Below are positions 1,516 through 8,562 of a stretch of DNA of 64,000 nucleotides, in pieces. This DNA comes from a virus. The first letter of the stretch is position 1, and each line of letters opens with the position of its first letter. The position numbers and the translations under genes were made by a program. Where the stretch lies: IMG/VR virus record IMGVR_UViG_3300025150_000003, positions 64,001-128,000 of that record; one strand, given 5' to 3'. The notes beneath the pieces were generated by a model. That model had not been told where the DNA came from and did not search any database. It saw nothing but the letters and a program-made list of their open reading frames with translations.

Positions 1516-3114
1516 TCAGGGCTTGATCCCCACCAAGAAGGGTTCCCAACCCGGCTTCAGGGCCGTGGCCCACCCATCGAACTTGGCTGCCTCTGAGGTT
1601 GCTGCCGCAGTTAGGGAGTAGCCATCCTTGAGTCCGTTCTTCGCTTTCCCGGTTGCCCCCCCGTAATCCAAAGCGATTCTATCAACAACCTGTGGGTCGA
1701 TGTTGCCCACTTTGCCCACGACCTCTCGCTCGGCACCGAAGTGCTGATCGATAGCCTTGCTCGTGTTCAAATATTTCGGAAAGCCACTGTTTCCAGTGAT
1801 GAATGTCAGCCCCTTACGTCGAGCTACAAAAGCTCCGGTGGGCACCCTGACACACCACACCGTCCCTGTGTGGTGCACCTTTTCAACCTGAACAGCTACC
1901 CTTGCCAGATCGGCAAGGGCTTCCCATGCGCCTCGAACAGCTTGTGTGCCTGATTCGAGGCGAACAACGCCAAGTTCTCCAGCCTGTTGTCCACGGGGTT
2001 GTGGTTCAAGTGATGCACCGTCTCCTGTCGAGAGAGACACCGACCCAACACCTGAGCTACGATCAGTCGGTGTTCCATGATGTACCCATCCTTGCGGGCC
2101 ATCGGGCGGAACTCGGGGGGGCAGCGCAAGTACCGGATCTGTCCGTTCTTGGTGTAGTTGCCCTTTTTCCTGAAGTAGGTCACCCCACCCTTCCAAGCCG
2201 GGTTGCTCGGCCCCGTCATTTTCTTGATCGCAGATGCTCTCCCTTCGGGAGACACCGCCGCAGCCCCCTTGTGCCCGTGCTTCGCCCAGTCCTGACCCCG
2301 ATGCACTCCGTTGCACTTCCGAGAGCAAACTGGCTGGCGTGCCCCCTTCCGAAGCCACGCATCGGGATACCACTTCAGCGTGCCACACACTGTGCAGGCA
2401 ATGAACTGCCCCTTCCGTTCCGCCAGGGGCTTCTTGATCTGCACTCGGATCCGGTTCGCACAGGAACGTCCGCACGTCTGTTGTGACGCTTTGTGGGGGA
2501 TGAACTCCCCACTGCACGCTGGGCACAACCTCGGTTGCTTCCAGCCCCTCCGCTCGGATGAACTCCCAGTGACCCTCTCGTTGGACAAGGCAGCGGTGTC
2601 CGACGGACACGATGTGGTCAGTGCCGTCTCCATAGAGACGGTAGGCTTCTCGGTCGTAGGGGTACTCAAAGGTTTCCTCCACAGACTGCCATGTGAGTTG
2701 GCCGGTCTCGGGATTGAAGCCCAACACCTGCTTTCCGACCTTGGCTCTATGGTAGTGTGCCCACCCCTCTGGGGTCAAGATTTCAGTGTCCTCCGTGAGA
2801 CATCCGTACCCCCAAGCCTCAAGGGACCCTTCCACGGGCAGGACGAACCCTGCCTCCTCCATGGCAGCCGCAAGTCGATGGAATGTGCGGGTGGCCGAGA
2901 ACACCTTGATGATGCCGCCAGAGGGCAGAACGTCAAAGCAGGCTTTCAACCATTCTAGGTGCCAAGCCGCGTTTTCCTGACCAGTGCCTTCTGCATCCCA
3001 ATCCCTTGACATGAAGCCCACCAAGTATGGGGGGTCCGTGACCACAGCCCCGACACCCTTCAAAGTCTTTAGGACCTGGAAGCTGTCACCCAGTCTCAGC
3101 GTGATGGTCGTCAT
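1516..3114 (-). CDS. Beta-class (N4C/N6A) DNA methyltransferase, N-terminal catalytic half, intein-containing
   Basis: LGDS...VVTDPPY...VLPSGG...FHRLAAAMEEAGF...WGYG|intein|SGFPK...GWATALKPGWEPFLVGIKP-stop. No FxGxG motif. The start overlaps the upstream stop (TGATG at 3116-3112). Confidence 0.9.
   Translation of the reverse strand: MTTITLRLGDSFQVLKTLKGVGAVVTDPPYLVGFMSRDWDAEGTGQENAAWHLEWLKACFDVLPSGGIIKVFSATRTFHRLAAAMEEAGFVLPVEGSLEAWGYGCLTEDTEILTPEGWAHYHRAKVGKQVLGFNPETGQLTWQSVEETFEYPYDREAYRLYGDGTDHIVSVGHRCLVQREGHWEFIRAEGLEATEVVPSVQWGVHPPQSVTTDVRTFLCEPDPSADQEAPGGTEGAVHCLHSVWHAEVVSRCVASEGGTPASLLSEVQRSASGSGLGEARAQGGCGGVSRRESICDQENDGAEQPGLEGWGDLLQEKGQLHQERTDPVLALPPRVPPDGPQGWVHHGTPTDRSSGVGSVSLSTGDGASLEPQPRGQQAGELGVVRLESGTQAVRGAWEALADLARVAVQVEKVHHTGTVWCVRVPTGAFVARRKGLTFITGNSGFPKYLNTSKAIDQHFGAEREVVGKVGNIDPQVVDRIALDYGGATGKAKNGLKDGYSLTAAATSEAAKFDGWATALKPGWEPFLVGIKP
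1789..2802 (-). mobile_element. Intein (338 aa) inserted at YG|SGFPK of the methyltransferase
   Basis: Block A CLTEDTEILTPEGW, block B IVSVGHRCLV, blocks F/G TVWCVRVPTGAFVARRKGLTFITGN followed by +1 Ser. Removing it restores the conserved WxYGSGFPK motif. Confidence 0.9.
1896..2669 (-). CDS. Zinc-finger HNH homing endonuclease nested out of frame (+1) inside the intein; true start uncertain (TTG 2669, ATG 2633 or later)
   Basis: Four Cys pairs (CPAC, CGRSC, CTVC, CSRKC), GPSNPAWKGG, DGYIMEHRLIVAQVLGR and ETVHHLNHNPVDNRLENL (HNH_3 type). Codons in this frame are strongly G/C-ending. Confidence 0.88.
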   Translation of the reverse strand: MSTPTTEKPTVSMETALTTSCPSDTAALSNERVTGSSSERRGWKQPRLCPACSGEFIPHKASQQTCGRSCANRIRVQIKKPLAERKGQFIACTVCGTLKWYPDAWLRKGARQPVCSRKCNGVHRGQDWAKHGHKGAAAVSPEGRASAIKKMTGPSNPAWKGGVTYFRKKGNYTKNGQIRYLRCPPEFRPMARKDGYIMEHRLIVAQVLGRCLSRQETVHHLNHNPVDNRLENLALFASNQAHKLFEAHGKPLPIWQG

Positions 3115-4700
3115 CAGTCTTCACCAAACCAGTCGAGGAGGGACACAGTCTTCGGGGGCTCTTTCTTGACCTGGTGATCAGACACGATCTTCGTGTCGTG
3201 TCCCCGGTACTTCGAGGTGCTCCAGTAACGGATACGGGCATCCGCAATGGCGAGATACTCTGGCTCCCGCTCGATGCCCTCGAAATCATGACCTGTGATC
3301 GAACAAGCGATGCCCGTGGTCCCGGAGCCCAGGAAAGGATCCACCACGGCCCCCAGGTCCTTGGGGACATTGGCCAGCAACCTCTTCATGATTTCAATGG
3401 ACTTCACGGTCGGGTGGAAATTACGGACCTTCTTCGCAGTCCGCCCAGCCCCGGCTCGTGGGTTCTGCACCCCTGCCGAACCCTCTTCCCGTTCCACGGC
3501 CTCGTGCCCAGCCTTGGCCGGCAGCTTCGAGCAACCAGCCTCTCGCTCCTTCCTTCCTGCCTTGGCAACGTAGTGGAAGGAGCCAGGACCTTGGACAAGC
3601 AGGATGGCGTCACGGATCTCGAACCCTGCGTCCTCCAACCGAATGGCTCCGGTGTGACCTGTGGGCTGGGTATCGGGAGCGATGAGGAAGACGTGACCAC
3701 CCGGCGGGAGGACTCGCCAGCACTCGGTGATTTGGGACTCCGTGATGGTGTGACTGCCGCTGGTCACGACCAGGCCACAGACCGAGCCGGTCTCCCAGGT
3801 GGAGATGTCCGTCGTGGCGGAGATGACCACGGCTTGCTTGTCAGGAGTTGAGCCCATCGTGCGGAGATACTCGGTGAGGGTGTCTCCCGATGCCTGCTTG
3901 AAGAACCGGGAGGCACCTCCTGTGTCCCGGTGCCCCTCGGTATTTCCTGCTTTCCACCCAAACAAGCCCCCTTGATGGTCACGGCTTGTCCGAAAACTAT
4001 GAGGACGTTCCCCGCTCTGCTCATCCAGGTCTGCTACAGGGCAGTCAGGCTCACAATCCCACTCGGGGTCGGACTCCACCTGCTTGAAGAACCGGGAGGC
4101 ACCGCCGGTGTCCCCGTAGGAGACCATTGGTGTCCCCTCTGGACGATTCTCCTGACCAAAGGCTGCACTCCCATTGCCATCCTGGTCCCGCGAGGACGCC
4201 CTCTTGACCGCTCCCGTGCCCGAAGTGAGGCTCCCGCTCTGTTCATCCAGGTCAGCCACGGGGCAGCCAGACTCACAATCCCAAGCCGCAACCTGTTCCT
4301 TCCCCGTGGAATCCCCGTGTTGATTGCCAGGATGAGAGACACCGCGTAGCATCCCCGTTACGGATTCACCCTCATAGGCATCAGGTACAGTCTTCGATGA
4401 GGGACTGCCTTTGACGATCTTGGTGCCCGCCTGAACACAACCCGGTTTGTGTTGTAGGATGACGTTTGCAGGCCATCTCCCTGAGACCTCCGGGGGAGTG
4501 TCCCCTGCGCCACCCCGCTTGAAACGCCAGTCCTCAGGATTGGGTCGGGGAGTCGGGTCCGAAGCGTATGCCCCACCACCAAGATTGTCTTTGGTGGAGA
4601 GTCGGGTATCCCCGATGTTCAGGGACCCTGTGCCGTACTTGAGGGCGTTCTGCGCAACGGTGCCCTCAAGGGGCTTCCGGGCCATATGGATAACGATCAT
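3114..4700 (-). CDS. Beta-class DNA methyltransferase partner: TRD-like region, degenerate catalytic segment and SAM-binding motif I
   Basis: Begins ARKPLEGTVAQNALKYGTGSLNI...GRWPANV...GGASRFF, then ECWRVLPPGG...LEDAGFEIRD without DPPY, then NFHPTVKS...VVDPFLGSGTTG...GIERE. Start at ATG 4700 overlaps the upstream TGA (ATGA). Confidence 0.88.
   Translation of the reverse strand: MIVIHMARKPLEGTVAQNALKYGTGSLNIGDTRLSTKDNLGGGAYASDPTPRPNPEDWRFKRGGAGDTPPEVSGRWPANVILQHKPGCVQAGTKIVKGSPSSKTVPDAYEGESVTGMLRGVSHPGNQHGDSTGKEQVAAWDCESGCPVADLDEQSGSLTSGTGAVKRASSRDQDGNGSAAFGQENRPEGTPMVSYGDTGGASRFFKQVESDPEWDCEPDCPVADLDEQSGERPHSFRTSRDHQGGLFGWKAGNTEGHRDTGGASRFFKQASGDTLTEYLRTMGSTPDKQAVVISATTDISTWETGSVCGLVVTSGSHTITESQITECWRVLPPGGHVFLIAPDTQPTGHTGAIRLEDAGFEIRDAILLVQGPGSFHYVAKAGRKEREAGCSKLPAKAGHEAVEREEGSAGVQNPRAGAGRTAKKVRNFHPTVKSIEIMKRLLANVPKDLGAVVDPFLGSGTTGIACSITGHDFEGIEREPEYLAIADARIRYWSTSKYRGHDTKIVSDHQVKKEPPKTVSLLDWFGED
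3894..4283 (-). repeat. Internal tandem duplication within the methyltransferase partner gene
   Basis: Two units WDCExxCPVADLDEQSG...DTGGASRFFKQ (4283-4080 and 4061-3894) with near-identical ends and unrelated middles. Confidence 0.85.
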
Positions 4701-5671
4701 TCCGGGCATTGCAGCAGATCCAGGATAGAGTTGTTGTCCGGTTGGAGACAGTGGGGAGAAAACCAGAGAGTCTCAAGGGTGAGGTTCTTGGTTCCCTGCC
4801 CCCCTGCATTGGAGTAGCCCGTGTTGGACTGCCGACTCGTCCCTGCCCAGTTCCACTGAGCCCAGCCCTCGGGTAGGACCCGTCCATCGTCATACCCTGC
4901 TACTGCGATGCGTAGGGCGGGGTCATCCCCGTGCTGTACAGCCCAGTCCCATACGGCTGCCGCAATCCCAGCCTCATCGCTCAGACTTGCCCCCGTGGGA
5001 TAGAGCTGGTCTGTCCCACGTCCATAGGGGGGATCAAGGAACAGAGCGTTGATCTTGGCCGTCTTCAGCCCGGCCCCAAGCAACCGAGTCCAGTCCCCGC
5101 ACACAACCCGAACTTCCCGTAGCCGCTCGGAGAGCATCTGGAAATGATCCAGCGTGATCTTGCCCACCCGCTTGTAGGTCAGGTGTGGAACCGTTCGACG
5201 GACACCTGGTCGGACATCCCCTTTTGGGCGAGCCTGGAAGACCCCGTCAATGGATACCCAGGGTCCCTTGCCGATGCACCAACCTCGGCCAATCCACGAA
5301 AGGGAACCCCACACCCACCAACCTGCGATCTTGGCGTCGTACCAGTGAGGGTCCCCCATCAACCTGTTCAAGATGTTCTCACTCTGGCCCACAAGCCAGA
5401 GATGTCGGGCGTGAAGGTCAGCCTCGTTCACAGGCCACTGAGCCCAACGAAGTACCTCCTCCGGCTCCGCAGCCACGGCTCGAAAGAAATTCGAGATGAA
5501 CCCATCGGCATCGTTGATGGTCTCCATCCCTTTGGGACCGTCGGGACGCATCAGCAACACTGCAGCCGAACCGGCGAAAGGCTCCACGTAGTTGGACACG
5601 GAACCAAACCGTCGCCACACCTCAGGGGCCACAGCATCCTTGTTGCCGAACCGAGAGAACGGGGCTTTCAT
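4697..5671 (-). CDS. Dam/D12-class (alpha) DNA adenine methyltransferase
   Basis: MKAPFSRFGNK, YVEPFAGSAAV, ETINDAD and FLDPPY. Start at ATG 5671 overlaps the helicase stop (TGATG). Confidence 0.9.
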   Translation of the reverse strand: MKAPFSRFGNKDAVAPEVWRRFGSVSNYVEPFAGSAAVLLMRPDGPKGMETINDADGFISNFFRAVAAEPEEVLRWAQWPVNEADLHARHLWLVGQSENILNRLMGDPHWYDAKIAGWWVWGSLSWIGRGWCIGKGPWVSIDGVFQARPKGDVRPGVRRTVPHLTYKRVGKITLDHFQMLSERLREVRVVCGDWTRLLGAGLKTAKINALFLDPPYGRGTDQLYPTGASLSDEAGIAAAVWDWAVQHGDDPALRIAVAGYDDGRVLPEGWAQWNWAGTSRQSNTGYSNAGGQGTKNLTLETLWFSPHCLQPDNNSILDLLQCPE

Positions 5672-8562
5672 CAGTCCGTCTCCAGTTCCTCTTTGGCGGC
5701 CTTGTCCACGGCCGCACCAATCTTGGCGTTCTCCTCGGGAGTCAGCGCCACATCGAAACAGCTCAGAAGCCGACGACAAGGCCACTCCACCCGGGCGATG
5801 AAGGGCAGGAACGCTGCCTGGTCACGAGACTTGAGACAGTTGAACTGCACCCTCGACTGAGCTTTCAACTCATCATCGATCCAGGTTGAGGTCACCACGT
5901 CGGCCGAGTTGTGTGACAGCACAGGCCCCGTTTGGTACTCGTGATCCCCGTCCACTTCCAGATCCATCACGGGCTCATCTCGACCCGTATCTACTACAGA
6001 AACGACCCGCATCACCTGGAAGGTCAACAATCGTCGTAAGAACTGGACTTCAGCACCTCCGATGCCCTTCTCCGATGCGTGTTGCACCAGAAGTTCCACG
6101 GCACTCCGAGGCACCAGCCCCGTCTTACGGACCTTTGCAGGCAGGTTATAAAAGCTCCGAGGGAACGCCCCCTGGACAGACCCCGCAGGATGCACTTGGG
6201 TAAAGGCAGACAAGAACGTGTGAGGTACTGGATACACCTGTTTGCGAGACTCCCGCCCGGATACTTGCTGTGCTTGCTTATCCTCTTGGGAGAACCCAAT
6301 GTCTTGATGAAAACGCTGGGCACTTTCACGAGTCCGCACCCGGAGTAACACTTTCGGGTAGGTTTTCCCGGTCCGGCGCAAGAAAGAGCCCCACTTAGAC
6401 AAGTCCGAGTCAATACCCAGGGCTGTCAACAGCAACTGTACTTGGCGCAGGAAGTCTTCACAGGCCCCCTTCATGTTAATGCCCACGACCCCCTGATTGT
6501 TCACCCATCCGTCTGTATCAAACAATCCCTGCAGGTAAGCACACACAATTTCACGGGGGGCCTGCAAGATGCAGGTGGGGACTTCGACAGCCCGTTTACC
6601 CGCCACCGTCTCAAACCACCGCTTCAGAGGCTGGCTCCACTTCACCAGTTCGAAGGATCCTGACCGAGAAGGGTTCTCTTGAAGGGGCAGGGTATGACCG
6701 AAGGTATGCTCAAAACAGGTATGGAGTCGATCCCGAACAGCCGTCTCTTTCCGGTTCCCCGTCCAACCCAGGCCCCGAGGGTGTGTCTTGCCGTCACCAT
6801 CCCAAGCTCCCAGCAAGTAGGCTAGATCACGAGTAACTTTGGCGGGAGTTTTCAAGGGGATTCCTTGCTGCCCACTCGGTTTTTCACCGGACCCAATGAC
6901 AAGGTCAGGGAGTGCCGGGAACCTGCTGGGCCATGCCTCCTCTTCGCCGAAGGTGCTTGCCACATAGTCCTTACCTGGACTCAAGTTGCTGATGGTCTGC
7001 CAACCCAATTGGCCATCTTGCACCACCCGCACTCGATGGGATGCCGTGCAACCTAGCTTGGACCCCCTGTCCGTTGTCACGTCCCAGATGCGGCGGACAC
7101 CATTGTCGAAAACCTGCTTGATTTGCTTCCAACCGGAACCCGACCACACGGTTTCTCTATATCGGGAAACCTCGTCAATGCGCACAATTCCCCGGCCAGA
7201 ACGGATGAAAGTGCTTGAAACTGCTACACATCGCTCGGCTTCGTTGGCGTAACTCAGGTGAGTCAAATTGTAGCCAGCAACACCGGTCTTCTCCTTCGTC
7301 TTGAGAGCACTCTTGTACCCCTCACGGGAAATTTGGAACAGACCGACGACCGCCATCCCCTGCCCACGGTTGAATCCCAGAGCGAGCTTCTTGAGGTCAC
7401 GGATGACCTCGTTCAGGTTCTCTGTGGTGCTGCTGCGATGCCGACGGGGCGACATGAGCCCGCAGTGGTCCACGAACACCATTGAGAAGGGGTCTTTGCT
7501 GTAGATGACCTCGGCCATGGACCGGAGGTCGTGCATCGTGAAATCGTCCTTGTCGGGGTCGGCAACCTCGATGTGGATCTTCGCGTAGTCCTGACCGAGG
7601 TAGGGGTGGTTCACCACATCCTCCCCATTGAAATCGGGGATCACATAGTCGAAGTAGAAGGCCTTGGCGTTGACATTCCACTCGTGCAGCTTGCCATCCC
7701 GGATGTCCTGGTAGGGCAGTCCTACGTCTTGCTCGGGGTCCGTCTGGATGCCCAGACGCATTCGGATCTCACGGAACTTCGGGTGCATCGAGTGGATGGC
7801 GTAGAGGATGCGCCGGCACTGACCGTAGGGCATCTCCAGGCTGAAGATCAGCACGTTGTGCTTGTAGATCACGGCCTGGTTGTAGGCCCAGTTGAGCATG
7901 AACGTGCTCTTCATCCCGCCGGTGAACGCAGCATGAATCCAAAGCTCGTGTCGCTTGGCCCCGCCGAGGGCATCATCGCACTGCTGGAGGAAACAGAACT
8001 GCCCAATACCGGCGAGAGGGTCTGCCTCGACCCTCTCGTACTCTTCCTTGACCGCAACACCATCCTTGGTGACTTCACCGGAGAGCCTCCCGCCGATGGT
8101 GGGAGCTACAATGTCGTGAGCCTTCTCCATCACATACCGGGCGGAGTGGATTGGCCCCAGGAGGATCTTCTTCTCCTTGCCATCCGCCACCTCCATCCCA
8201 GTGGAGGTGATGATGGACGCCTCCTTGAGCGTCTCAGCCCATACACGCTGCCGACGGTCGTTGGCCTTGTCTTCCAGGACTCGCTGGAAGTCCCCCTTGG
8301 TCCTTGCCTTCAGCCCCTCCAGCACCCGGAGCTGATCTAGGACCGAGTCCTCCTTGGAGTGCTCGAAGTGTGACCTCAGGGTCGCGAGGTTCGGGATGTG
8401 ACTATGAGCCCGGACGAACTCTTGGATGTAGGCCCAGATGGCGTTGTATTCAGGGACCTCGAAACCAAGGGCGGATCCGTTGAGCATCTGATAGTTGCGG
8501 AGCAACAGCTCGGGATTGTCCCCAGCATCCGCAATGAACACTGAGCGAAGCAGAGACTTCAT
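5671..8562 (-). CDS. dnaB: DnaB-like (SF4) replicative helicase with intein
   Basis: Walker A AFTGGMKST, IFSLEM, VFVDH, LFQISR, EAER|SADVV and CLKSRD. Confidence 0.9.
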   Translation of the reverse strand: MKSLLRSVFIADAGDNPELLLRNYQMLNGSALGFEVPEYNAIWAYIQEFVRAHSHIPNLATLRSHFEHSKEDSVLDQLRVLEGLKARTKGDFQRVLEDKANDRRQRVWAETLKEASIITSTGMEVADGKEKKILLGPIHSARYVMEKAHDIVAPTIGGRLSGEVTKDGVAVKEEYERVEADPLAGIGQFCFLQQCDDALGGAKRHELWIHAAFTGGMKSTFMLNWAYNQAVIYKHNVLIFSLEMPYGQCRRILYAIHSMHPKFREIRMRLGIQTDPEQDVGLPYQDIRDGKLHEWNVNAKAFYFDYVIPDFNGEDVVNHPYLGQDYAKIHIEVADPDKDDFTMHDLRSMAEVIYSKDPFSMVFVDHCGLMSPRRHRSSTTENLNEVIRDLKKLALGFNRGQGMAVVGLFQISREGYKSALKTKEKTGVAGYNLTHLSYANEAERCVAVSSTFIRSGRGIVRIDEVSRYRETVWSGSGWKQIKQVFDNGVRRIWDVTTDRGSKLGCTASHRVRVVQDGQLGWQTISNLSPGKDYVASTFGEEEAWPSRFPALPDLVIGSGEKPSGQQGIPLKTPAKVTRDLAYLLGAWDGDGKTHPRGLGWTGNRKETAVRDRLHTCFEHTFGHTLPLQENPSRSGSFELVKWSQPLKRWFETVAGKRAVEVPTCILQAPREIVCAYLQGLFDTDGWVNNQGVVGINMKGACEDFLRQVQLLLTALGIDSDLSKWGSFLRRTGKTYPKVLLRVRTRESAQRFHQDIGFSQEDKQAQQVSGRESRKQVYPVPHTFLSAFTQVHPAGSVQGAFPRSFYNLPAKVRKTGLVPRSAVELLVQHASEKGIGGAEVQFLRRLLTFQVMRVVSVVDTGRDEPVMDLEVDGDHEYQTGPVLSHNSADVVTSTWIDDELKAQSRVQFNCLKSRDQAAFLPFIARVEWPCRRLLSCFDVALTPEENAKIGAAVDKAAKEELETD
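5908..7230 (-). mobile_element. Intein (441 aa) with LAGLIDADG homing endonuclease in the DnaB-like helicase
   Basis: Starts CVAVSSTF, block B CTASHRV, LAYLLGAWDGDG and AYLQGLFDTDG, ends VMDLEV...VLSHN|S. The DNA looks more AT-rich than its flanks. Confidence 0.92.

Follow-up and report, generated by a model that had tools for sequence, protein, structure and literature searches.

The window analysed here, a 64,000-nucleotide stretch of a viral genome (positions 64,001 to 128,000 of the IMG/VR record IMGVR_UViG_3300025150_000003), carries on its minus strand a phage DNA methyltransferase gene whose conserved WGYG↓SGFPK motif (the arrow marks the splice junction) is interrupted by a predicted intein, and between the splicing lobes of this intein lies a separate gene, in the +1 frame, encoding a putative homing endonuclease of the HNH_3 family. 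With a probability of about 0.8, we consider this arrangement to be a composite selfish element, namely a splicing intein combined with an overprinted, separately made HNH_3 homing endonuclease. The parent record is a metagenome-derived viral contig of 169 kb, with a CheckV completeness of about 32%. A composite of junk linker and overprinted HNH gene had already been proposed in a sequence-only reading of the window, and the modelled Hint fold, the frame-specific selection, the open host frames of homologues and the traces of horizontal movement described below all lend support to it.

According to this explanation, ribosomes translating the methyltransferase would cross the HNH gene in the wrong frame and produce a disordered linker of about 198 residues, despite which the two Hint lobes would still associate, and the intein would be spliced out together with the linker, leaving a predicted methyltransferase half of 194 aa. 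The HNH protein itself would be a product of internal initiation, for which TTG 2669, preceded by a GGAGG element, is the likeliest start codon; it would cut or nick intein-less alleles, with repair then copying in the whole element.

Splice junctions and predicted Hint fold of the intein

The features of the host open reading frame (ORF) are as follows (pLDDT, predicted local distance difference test score; pN/pS, ratio of the proportions of non-synonymous and synonymous differences between alleles).

1516..3114, minus strand: host ORF, N-terminal half (DPPY motif) of an N6/N4 DNA methyltransferase, 532 aa including the intein (ORF list, profiles)
2803..3114, minus strand: N-extein, aa 1-104, last residues WGYG (alignment A1)
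1789..2802, minus strand: intein, 338 codons in the host frame, Cys1 to Asn338 and then Ser+1 (splice motifs)
2503..2802, minus strand: N-terminal Hint (splicing) lobe, intein residues 1-100, beta-rich (pLDDT 85-97; host-frame pN/pS 0.0-0.7)
1909..2502, minus strand: in-frame filler, intein residues 101-298, stop-free read-through of the HNH gene (pLDDT 36-59; host-frame pN/pS 1.1-2.6)
1789..1908, minus strand: C-terminal Hint lobe with blocks F and G, intein residues 299-338 (pLDDT 89-97; host-frame pN/pS 0.00-0.30)
1516..1788, minus strand: C-extein, SGFPKYLNTSKAID ... EPFLVGIKP and stop codon (alignment A1; blastn)

The host protein is matched by Pfam N6_N4_Mtase over residues 23-91 (7e-8) as well as by PHROG DNA methyltransferase families, and a search of 5.8 billion protein clusters returned hundreds of homologues. 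After WGYG, its frame continues as CLTEDTEILT ... SVGH ... VWCVRVPTGAFVARRKGLTFITGN↓SGFPK, so that the insertion is delimited as WGYG↓C...ITGN↓S, with Cys105 (codon 2800-2802) as the first and Asn442 (codon 1789-1791) as the last intein residue, followed by Ser443. The complete splicing ends listed in the sequence-only reading (CLTEDTEILT, SVGH and VWCVRV...ITGN↓S) were therefore confirmed on the minus strand, and the roughly 200 motif-free, stop-free codons noticed between them correspond to a filler of 198 residues predicted to be disordered. Cys1, the block-B His69, the block-F Cys317 and Thr336-Gly337-Asn338 are invariant across 54 alleles; within block B (S-V-G-H), Ser66 is kept in at least 90% of these alleles and His69 in all of them, and the GN↓SGFPK junction was found in all loci. 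In the AlphaFold2 (AF2) model of the host frame, residues 1-100 and 299-338 form confidently predicted beta structure, while residues 101-298 are devoid of secondary structure and predicted to be disordered. The two modelled Hint lobes superpose on the AceL NrdHF intein (6zgq; VIA-align Z 20.5, rmsd, i.e., root-mean-square deviation, 1.7 over 141 residues) and on the NpuDnaB mini-intein (Z 16.3), and altogether 30 chains of inteins and related Hint domains were matched at Z ≥ 8.

The relation of this intein to class 3 is ambiguous in its details. Two of the three hallmarks of that class (WCT), Cys at F:4 (C317) and Thr at G:5 (T336), are invariant, and the top structural match, 6zgq, is itself a class 3 intein; position B:12, on the other hand, is occupied by Cys and not by Trp, and Cys1 is invariant. 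The combination of an invariant Cys1 with Cys F:4, Thr G:5 and a penultimate Gly recurs across the intein family in alignment A2.

Three observations weigh against a splicing intein. The penultimate intein residue is an invariant Gly337 instead of the block-G His, no Pfam intein or Hint model matched the host frame at E ≤ 0.1, and the NCBIfam search of the same frame gave one weak match, to an intein-containing radical SAM protein (E 0.086, residues 102-189). Of the profile searches that the sequence-only reading had recommended for both frames, that of the +1 frame was positive, with HNH_3 above its cut-off, and that of the host frame against the Pfam Hint and intein models was not. The penultimate His is not obligatory, since Gly, Lys or Ser occupy this position in mycobacteriophage inteins, and splicing has been tested for one of those with Gly (Kelley et al., 2016; PMC5050341).

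The missing His and the silent intein profiles, together with the existence of related HNH genes placed out of frame in intein-less methylases (L005-L028, and the ShiLan domain of PMC11855218), could also be explained by an insertion that does not splice and is kept in the methyltransferase as a tolerated loop, as is thought of the ShiLan domain. We consider this very improbable, given the complete Hint fold with its Z score of 20.5, the invariance of Cys1, the block-B His, the terminal Asn and the +1 Ser, the strong purifying selection acting on both lobes, and the precedent of penultimate Gly in splicing phage inteins (PMC5050341); moreover, the conserved YG↓SGFPK motif would probably not accommodate 338 additional residues.

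HNH gene in the +1 frame

1896..2669, minus strand: HNH homing-endonuclease ORF, +1 frame, 257 codons from TTG 2669, stop codon TAG at 1896-1898 (HNH_3 profile)
1932..2015, minus strand: HNH catalytic core, HNH residues 219-246, VHHLNHNPVDNRLENL...NQAHKLFE (family alignment)

The +1-frame ORF consists of zinc-ribbon modules followed by an HNH_3 core. It is recognized by Pfam HNH_3 (PF13392) with 32.9 bits against a cut-off of 24.8 (5e-8) and by ten PHROG HNH families with values down to 2e-17, and residues H220, N228, N232, N239 and H242 are invariant in 66 HNH family members, the window copy included; the description of this frame in the sequence-only reading, as an intact zinc-finger HNH protein at 1896-2669 rich in G/C-ending codons, is thus accurate. 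As for the codons, GC content by codon position switches phase over approximately 2500-1915, where the GC3 (third-position GC) signature of the genome appears in the HNH frame and not in the host frame. The AF2 model of the HNH frame has a mean pLDDT of 84.7, with residues 41-257 mostly well predicted, the first 40 or so poorly, and short dips elsewhere. Structural comparison is less favourable to the assignment: the best match, I-HmuI, reached only Z 5.2 (VIA), followed by I-PpoI, GVE2 HNH, Gme HNH and McrA (His-Me nucleases at ranks 2, 5, 6 and 7; Z ≤ 5.2), and nothing significant was retrieved from the PDB when the whole HNH model was searched with Foldseek. The PDB sequences likewise contained no match to a profile of the HNH alignment. 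Because structural scores are low, the HNH assignment is based on sequence profiles and on the invariant catalytic residues. No second HNH copy was found in the genome record of the window.

Some close relatives of the window protein have lost the endonuclease, P0014 and P0026 being mini-inteins without it and P0010 and P0015 retaining only the 3′ part of the HNH gene, in each case with the host frame kept. Such losses, and the TTG start codon of the window gene, would be in line with a recently inactivated HNH relic, in which case the element would now survive solely as a splicing intein containing a junk linker. This is unlikely for the window copy, which retains every residue invariant in the 66 family members, has an uninterrupted frame of 257 codons, and differs from its nearest relative (L004) with an HNH-frame pN/pS of only 0.34.

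Conserved layout, stop avoidance and frame-specific selection

Two scans of IMG/VR yielded 4 and 80 loci with an intein at the methylase site. Among the ORFs cut from related viral inteins, all 73 that matched the HNH-core profile used the +1 frame, with no match in frame 0, in frame +2 or on the other strand, and the host frame was open in 80 of the 80 methylase-intein loci fetched. Eleven loci missed by the junction pattern have variant junction residues with the same intein and an open host frame, which argues against ascertainment bias. Furthermore, hundreds of database methyltransferases (from the 5.8 billion clusters) align along the whole 532-aa protein, filler included, and conserved words of the filler, LGEARAQ, EQPxMEG and GSQAVR, are shadows of conserved HNH motifs. 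The layout is the one expected of a composite element, with an endonuclease ORF between the lobes, on the same strand and in another frame, a stop-free host frame and an unstructured in-frame middle.

A stop codon arises in the host frame only where an HNH codon ending in T precedes a codon starting with AA, AG or GA. Among 56 distinct alleles, T-ending codons occur in none of 3206 such contexts, compared with 2007 of 8200 (24.5%) elsewhere. When the HNH genes were shuffled synonymously, 2 to 18 host-frame stops were predicted per allele and, for most alleles, the frame stayed open in at most 0.1% of trials; for the window HNH, the mean was 5.6 stops and the host frame was open in 0.1% of trials. 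The third frame contains the expected number of stops (six in the window), which speaks against a general avoidance of stop trinucleotides, and the free-standing relatives L015 and L023 are closed in that frame. Taken as comparative sequence evidence, these figures indicate that selection keeps the host frame stop-free.

Comparison of 13 allele pairs revealed that constraint changes frame along the intein. In the splicing lobes, substitutions fall on host third positions (host-frame pN/pS 0.0-0.7 and 0.00-0.30 in the N- and C-terminal lobes, respectively) and pN/pS in the +1 frame is ≥1 for most pairs, whereas in the middle region it is the HNH frame that is constrained (0.13-0.45) and the host frame that is not (1.1-2.6). 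In the overlap of the HNH ORF with the N-terminal lobe (intein residues 45-100), it is chiefly the host frame that is constrained. Amino-acid selection is thus frame-specific: the lobes are under selection in the host frame, and the region between them in the HNH frame. The expectations attached to the sequence-only reading, i.e., that homologous inteins keep both frames open, that the HNH frame is under constraint and that T-ending codons are depleted before AA, AG and GA, were all borne out, and the intein-frame stops in homologues that would speak against it were seen in none of the loci examined, including the eleven missed by the pattern.

The same data bear on the possibility of a sequencing or assembly artefact, in which an HNH domain truly in frame with the intein has been shifted by two compensating indels. 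The contig is metagenome-derived, and the record P0121, a variant of L071 with the HNH frame running into the C-terminal lobe, means that single frameshifted records do exist. Nevertheless, the HNH match lies in the +1 frame at each of the 73 independently assembled loci that have one, the filler is covered by alignments with hundreds of database proteins, stop avoidance and frame-specific pN/pS cannot come from the errors of one contig, and the 5.8-billion-cluster collection, searched among proteins of 451-2000 residues, yielded just two in-frame HNH-methylase fusions. On these comparative grounds, an artefact is effectively refuted. The two fusions are P0121 itself and a non-intein fusion; P0121 opens in the HNH frame and is then continued by the C-terminal intein lobe and C-extein of a gene resembling that of L071, so that it represents either a genuine frameshift allele or an error of sequencing.

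Probable initiation of the HNH protein

2676..2680, minus strand: Shine-Dalgarno (SD)-like GGAGG, 6 nt upstream of TTG 2669 (anti-SD duplex -9.3 kcal/mol)
2749..2778, minus strand: weak sigma-70-like promoter match TTGACC-18-TACCAT inside the intein (9/12 positions), about 80 nt upstream of TTG 2669

As the sequence-only reading had stated, no ribosome-binding site precedes ATG 2633, but TTG 2669, located 12 codons upstream in the same frame, is preceded by GGAGG at a spacing of 6 nt. The duplex predicted for this element with the anti-SD sequence is stronger than the first-percentile value (-8.9 kcal/mol) for +1-frame positions across the family, an identical GGAGG..TTG is present in the nearest relative, L004, and about 40 of the 56 alleles have a start codon either at the aligned TTG position or two codons downstream. 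In many low-GC alleles, AAGGAG or GAGGAGG is followed after 8-10 nt by an ATG, and several of these have an in-frame stop immediately upstream of the ATG. Some features do not favour such a start: TTG is a weak start codon, the position of the start codon varies across the family, and a strong SD accompanies the aligned start in only 12 of 56 alleles.

An alternative route to the HNH protein is programmed +1 frameshifting from the intein frame, with a fusion of N-extein, N-terminal Hint lobe and HNH as its product. The strong GGAGG also lies a few nucleotides upstream of the frame junction, and SD-like elements stimulate +1 shifting in prfB; in addition, the +1 frame is open from intein nucleotide 28, well upstream of the first good start codon, and the start position varies among alleles. 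However, positions 2667-2680 lack a slippery codon with a stop or hungry codon behind it, such a combination is not conserved in relatives either, and inspection of the frame junction revealed no slippery or pause site that is conserved; many alleles have the canonical ATG behind an SD described above, the in-frame stops right upstream of it ruling out read-in from further upstream; and HNH residues 1-40 are poorly predicted and under host-frame, not +1-frame, constraint. Frameshifting is accordingly quite unlikely. In view of the GGAGG/TTG pair, the alleles with SD and ATG and the negative search for conserved slippery or pause sites, internal initiation, with TTG 2669 as the likeliest start, is the best-supported way of starting the protein as judged from the alleles compared, so that of the two routes named in the sequence-only reading the former is upheld and the latter is disfavoured.

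Two sigma-70-like sites occur in the region, against 0.3 expected. The match inside the intein was considered as evidence for a separate transcript and rejected as too weak; it is retained as a lead only.

Alleles, mobility and related HNH loci

The inteins of L054 and L059 are 99-100% identical over about 900 nt, although their exteins are only 50-90% identical. In this pair (L054 1783-2814), identity extends from the intein start to approximately 110 nt before the intein end, and the C-terminal lobe (pS 0.78) and both exteins are divergent, which places a recombination or co-conversion boundary where the HNH ORF ends, immediately ahead of the C-terminal lobe. A similar contrast between inteins and exteins was found for L050/L054 and L068/L069. 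Near-identical inteins in divergent exteins bear the signature of recent horizontal transfer.

The same insertion site is also occupied by inteins of another type. Locus L116 (1501-2973), with exteins close to those of the window (WGYG↓C..., SGFPKYLNTSKAIDQ), harbours a same-site intein with an in-frame LAGLIDADG, and LAGLIDADG inteins are found at the identical insertion site in Starcevich gp66 and Lilac gp101; more distant methylases without an intein display the empty site ...Y(G/S)(S/T/Q)GFPKS. Together, the near-identical inteins in divergent genes, the mini-inteins, partial deletions, LAGLIDADG alleles and empty sites would fit a homing cycle.

Genes related to the window HNH were found in 28 viral loci, in 26 of which they are nested at +1 in a long ORF. 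Four of the 28 are inteins like that of the window and about 20 are without intein; in the latter (L005-L014, L016-L022, L024-L028), the HNH gene lies at +1 inside a CxC...CxxC zinc-ribbon loop soon after GFPKSxN. In these 20 or so loci, the predicted read-through must stay in the enzyme, in a manner similar to ShiLan but at another site and in another frame. In the HNH tree, built from a short alignment with few columns, the intein-borne HNHs form essentially one group (97/88) and the non-intein and free-standing forms are in the other, two non-intein genes being placed within the intein group, which suggests that HNH genes have switched between harbours. On this basis, we tentatively put forward the possibility, itself rather doubtful, that a single lineage of zinc-ribbon HNH genes is specialized for an overprinted existence in the +1 frame of methyltransferase genes and switches between two harbours, either an intein, where the junk is spliced away, or a retained zinc-ribbon loop, both within about 15 codons of SGFPKS, its possible target.

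Comparison with known systems

Inteins with an out-of-frame endonuclease are a kind already known since 2025, two preprints (of 2025 and 2026) describing them, and the novelty attributed to the element in the sequence-only reading was overrated in this respect. Gosselin, Arsenault and Gogarten (bioRxiv 10.1101/2025.01.02.630785) reported actinobacteriophage inteins whose endonuclease occupies a separate reading frame: an endonuclease VII-like protein in frame 3, and also antisense LAGLIDADG or VSR-like proteins. Shared with the window family are a full intein, a disordered in-frame middle, a same-strand endonuclease in another frame, an open host frame and signs of continued transfer. The systems differ in that the hosts listed there are DNA polymerase, minor capsid, terminase and thymidylate synthase, with no methylase among them; in that HNH occurs there solely in frame, as opposed to the zinc-ribbon HNH_3 in the +1 frame of a methyltransferase intein; and in that the window family belongs to uncultured phages with 32-64% GC. 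The cyanobacterial dnaX intein of Phillips, DeSimone and Gogarten (bioRxiv 10.64898/2026.09.14.751524), with an out-of-frame LAGLIDADG endonuclease, has in common with the window family the overlapping splicing and homing frames, frame-dependent dN/dS (ratio of non-synonymous to synonymous substitution rates), a disordered middle and an SD upstream of the nested ORF; it differs by its LAGLIDADG instead of HNH endonuclease, its +2 ORF and its bacterial chromosomal host gene. As far as we searched, a family combining HNH_3, the +1 frame and a methylase intein has not been described in the literature.

The out-of-frame HNH in a phage methylase without splicing motifs that the sequence-only reading mentioned is the ShiLan domain, a hidden out-of-frame HNH in the mycobacteriophage DNA methylase gp65 (Arsenault, Gosselin and Gogarten, 2025; PMC11855218). 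It resides in the same methyltransferase family with the host frame kept open, and the HNH of ShiLan type in Starcevich is distantly homologous to that of the window, with a zinc-ribbon architecture and 28% identity (E 4e-10). The ShiLan domain, unlike the window element, lacks splicing motifs, is thought to be retained in the protein, and is found in frame 3 and at a different site, flanked by two EP..V.KP motifs. The interpretation of the window element as a ShiLan domain was rejected in view of its complete splice junctions and Hint fold and its different site and frame.

The mycobacteriophage DNMT-1/2 inteins (Kelley et al., 2016; PMC5050341; Starcevich gp66, Lilac gp101) occupy the same site, W.YG↓C ... 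ITGN↓SGFPK, and have homologous blocks; by these marks, the mycobacteriophage LAGLIDADG methylase inteins and the window intein are allelic, with the difference that the endonuclease of the former is an in-frame LAGLIDADG domain. Finally, in the fractured genes described by Dassa et al. (2009; PMC2677866), a free-standing endonuclease gene lies between the halves of a split intein. There, too, the endonuclease gene is separate from the intein polypeptide and lodged at the endonuclease-insertion point, but the host gene is broken into two trans-splicing ORFs, whereas in the window it is one continuous ORF preserved by stop avoidance.

Host methyltransferase gene and neighbouring genes

By blastn, the methylase genes of Starcevich (gp66) and Lilac (gp101) match the window gene across block F/G and the C-extein. 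The window methyltransferase is split, with its halves in swapped order on the minus strand (1516-4709). The downstream ORF (1516-3114) terminates with ...ALKPGWEPFLVGIKP and a stop codon, as the close relatives P0001 and P0003 likewise terminate at ...KP, and the upstream ORF (3114-4709), overlapping it by ATGA, opens with MPGMIVIHMARKPLEGTV... and contains a target recognition domain and an S-adenosylmethionine motif (DPFLGSGTT). The gene is split at the position that corresponds to the ShiLan insertion in Starcevich gp66, between EPVCVAVKP and FEPIVVARKP. The upstream half (3114-4709, minus strand) carries an internal duplication, in which WDCESGCPVADLDEQSG ... DTGGASRFFKQ recurs as WDCEPDCPVADLDEQSG ... 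DTGGASRFFKQ, and a second segment resembling the N-terminal half (VLPPGGHVFLIAP...GFEIRDAILLV). Nearby, as had been noticed beforehand, the DnaB helicase gene (5671-8562, minus strand) has a conventional intein with in-frame LAGLIDADG motifs (LAYLLGAWDGDGK, LQGLFDTDGW), and NCBIfam matches it to intein-containing proteins.

Significance of the element

The window family lends weight to the recent proposal that inteins can harbour homing endonucleases as overprinted genes of their own, and adds to it a large and old family, with at least 56 distinct alleles on viral contigs of 32-64% GC and hundreds of database proteins, in which the signal of selection against stops in the read-through frame is unusually clean. 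Gene callers report the long ORF only, so that the nucleases of such elements go unseen and their inteins look decayed. Since LAGLIDADG inteins, mini-inteins and empty alleles occur at the same site, the family represents a natural series for the gain and loss of endonucleases by inteins, and it lets one study both the translation of a nested out-of-frame gene and the length of disordered linker that an intein tolerates. If the tentative single-lineage hypothesis were true, ShiLan-type insertions and inteins with an out-of-frame HNH would be two outcomes of invasion by one free-standing homing-endonuclease lineage, and the intein family would be a living example of "splicing first, endonuclease later".

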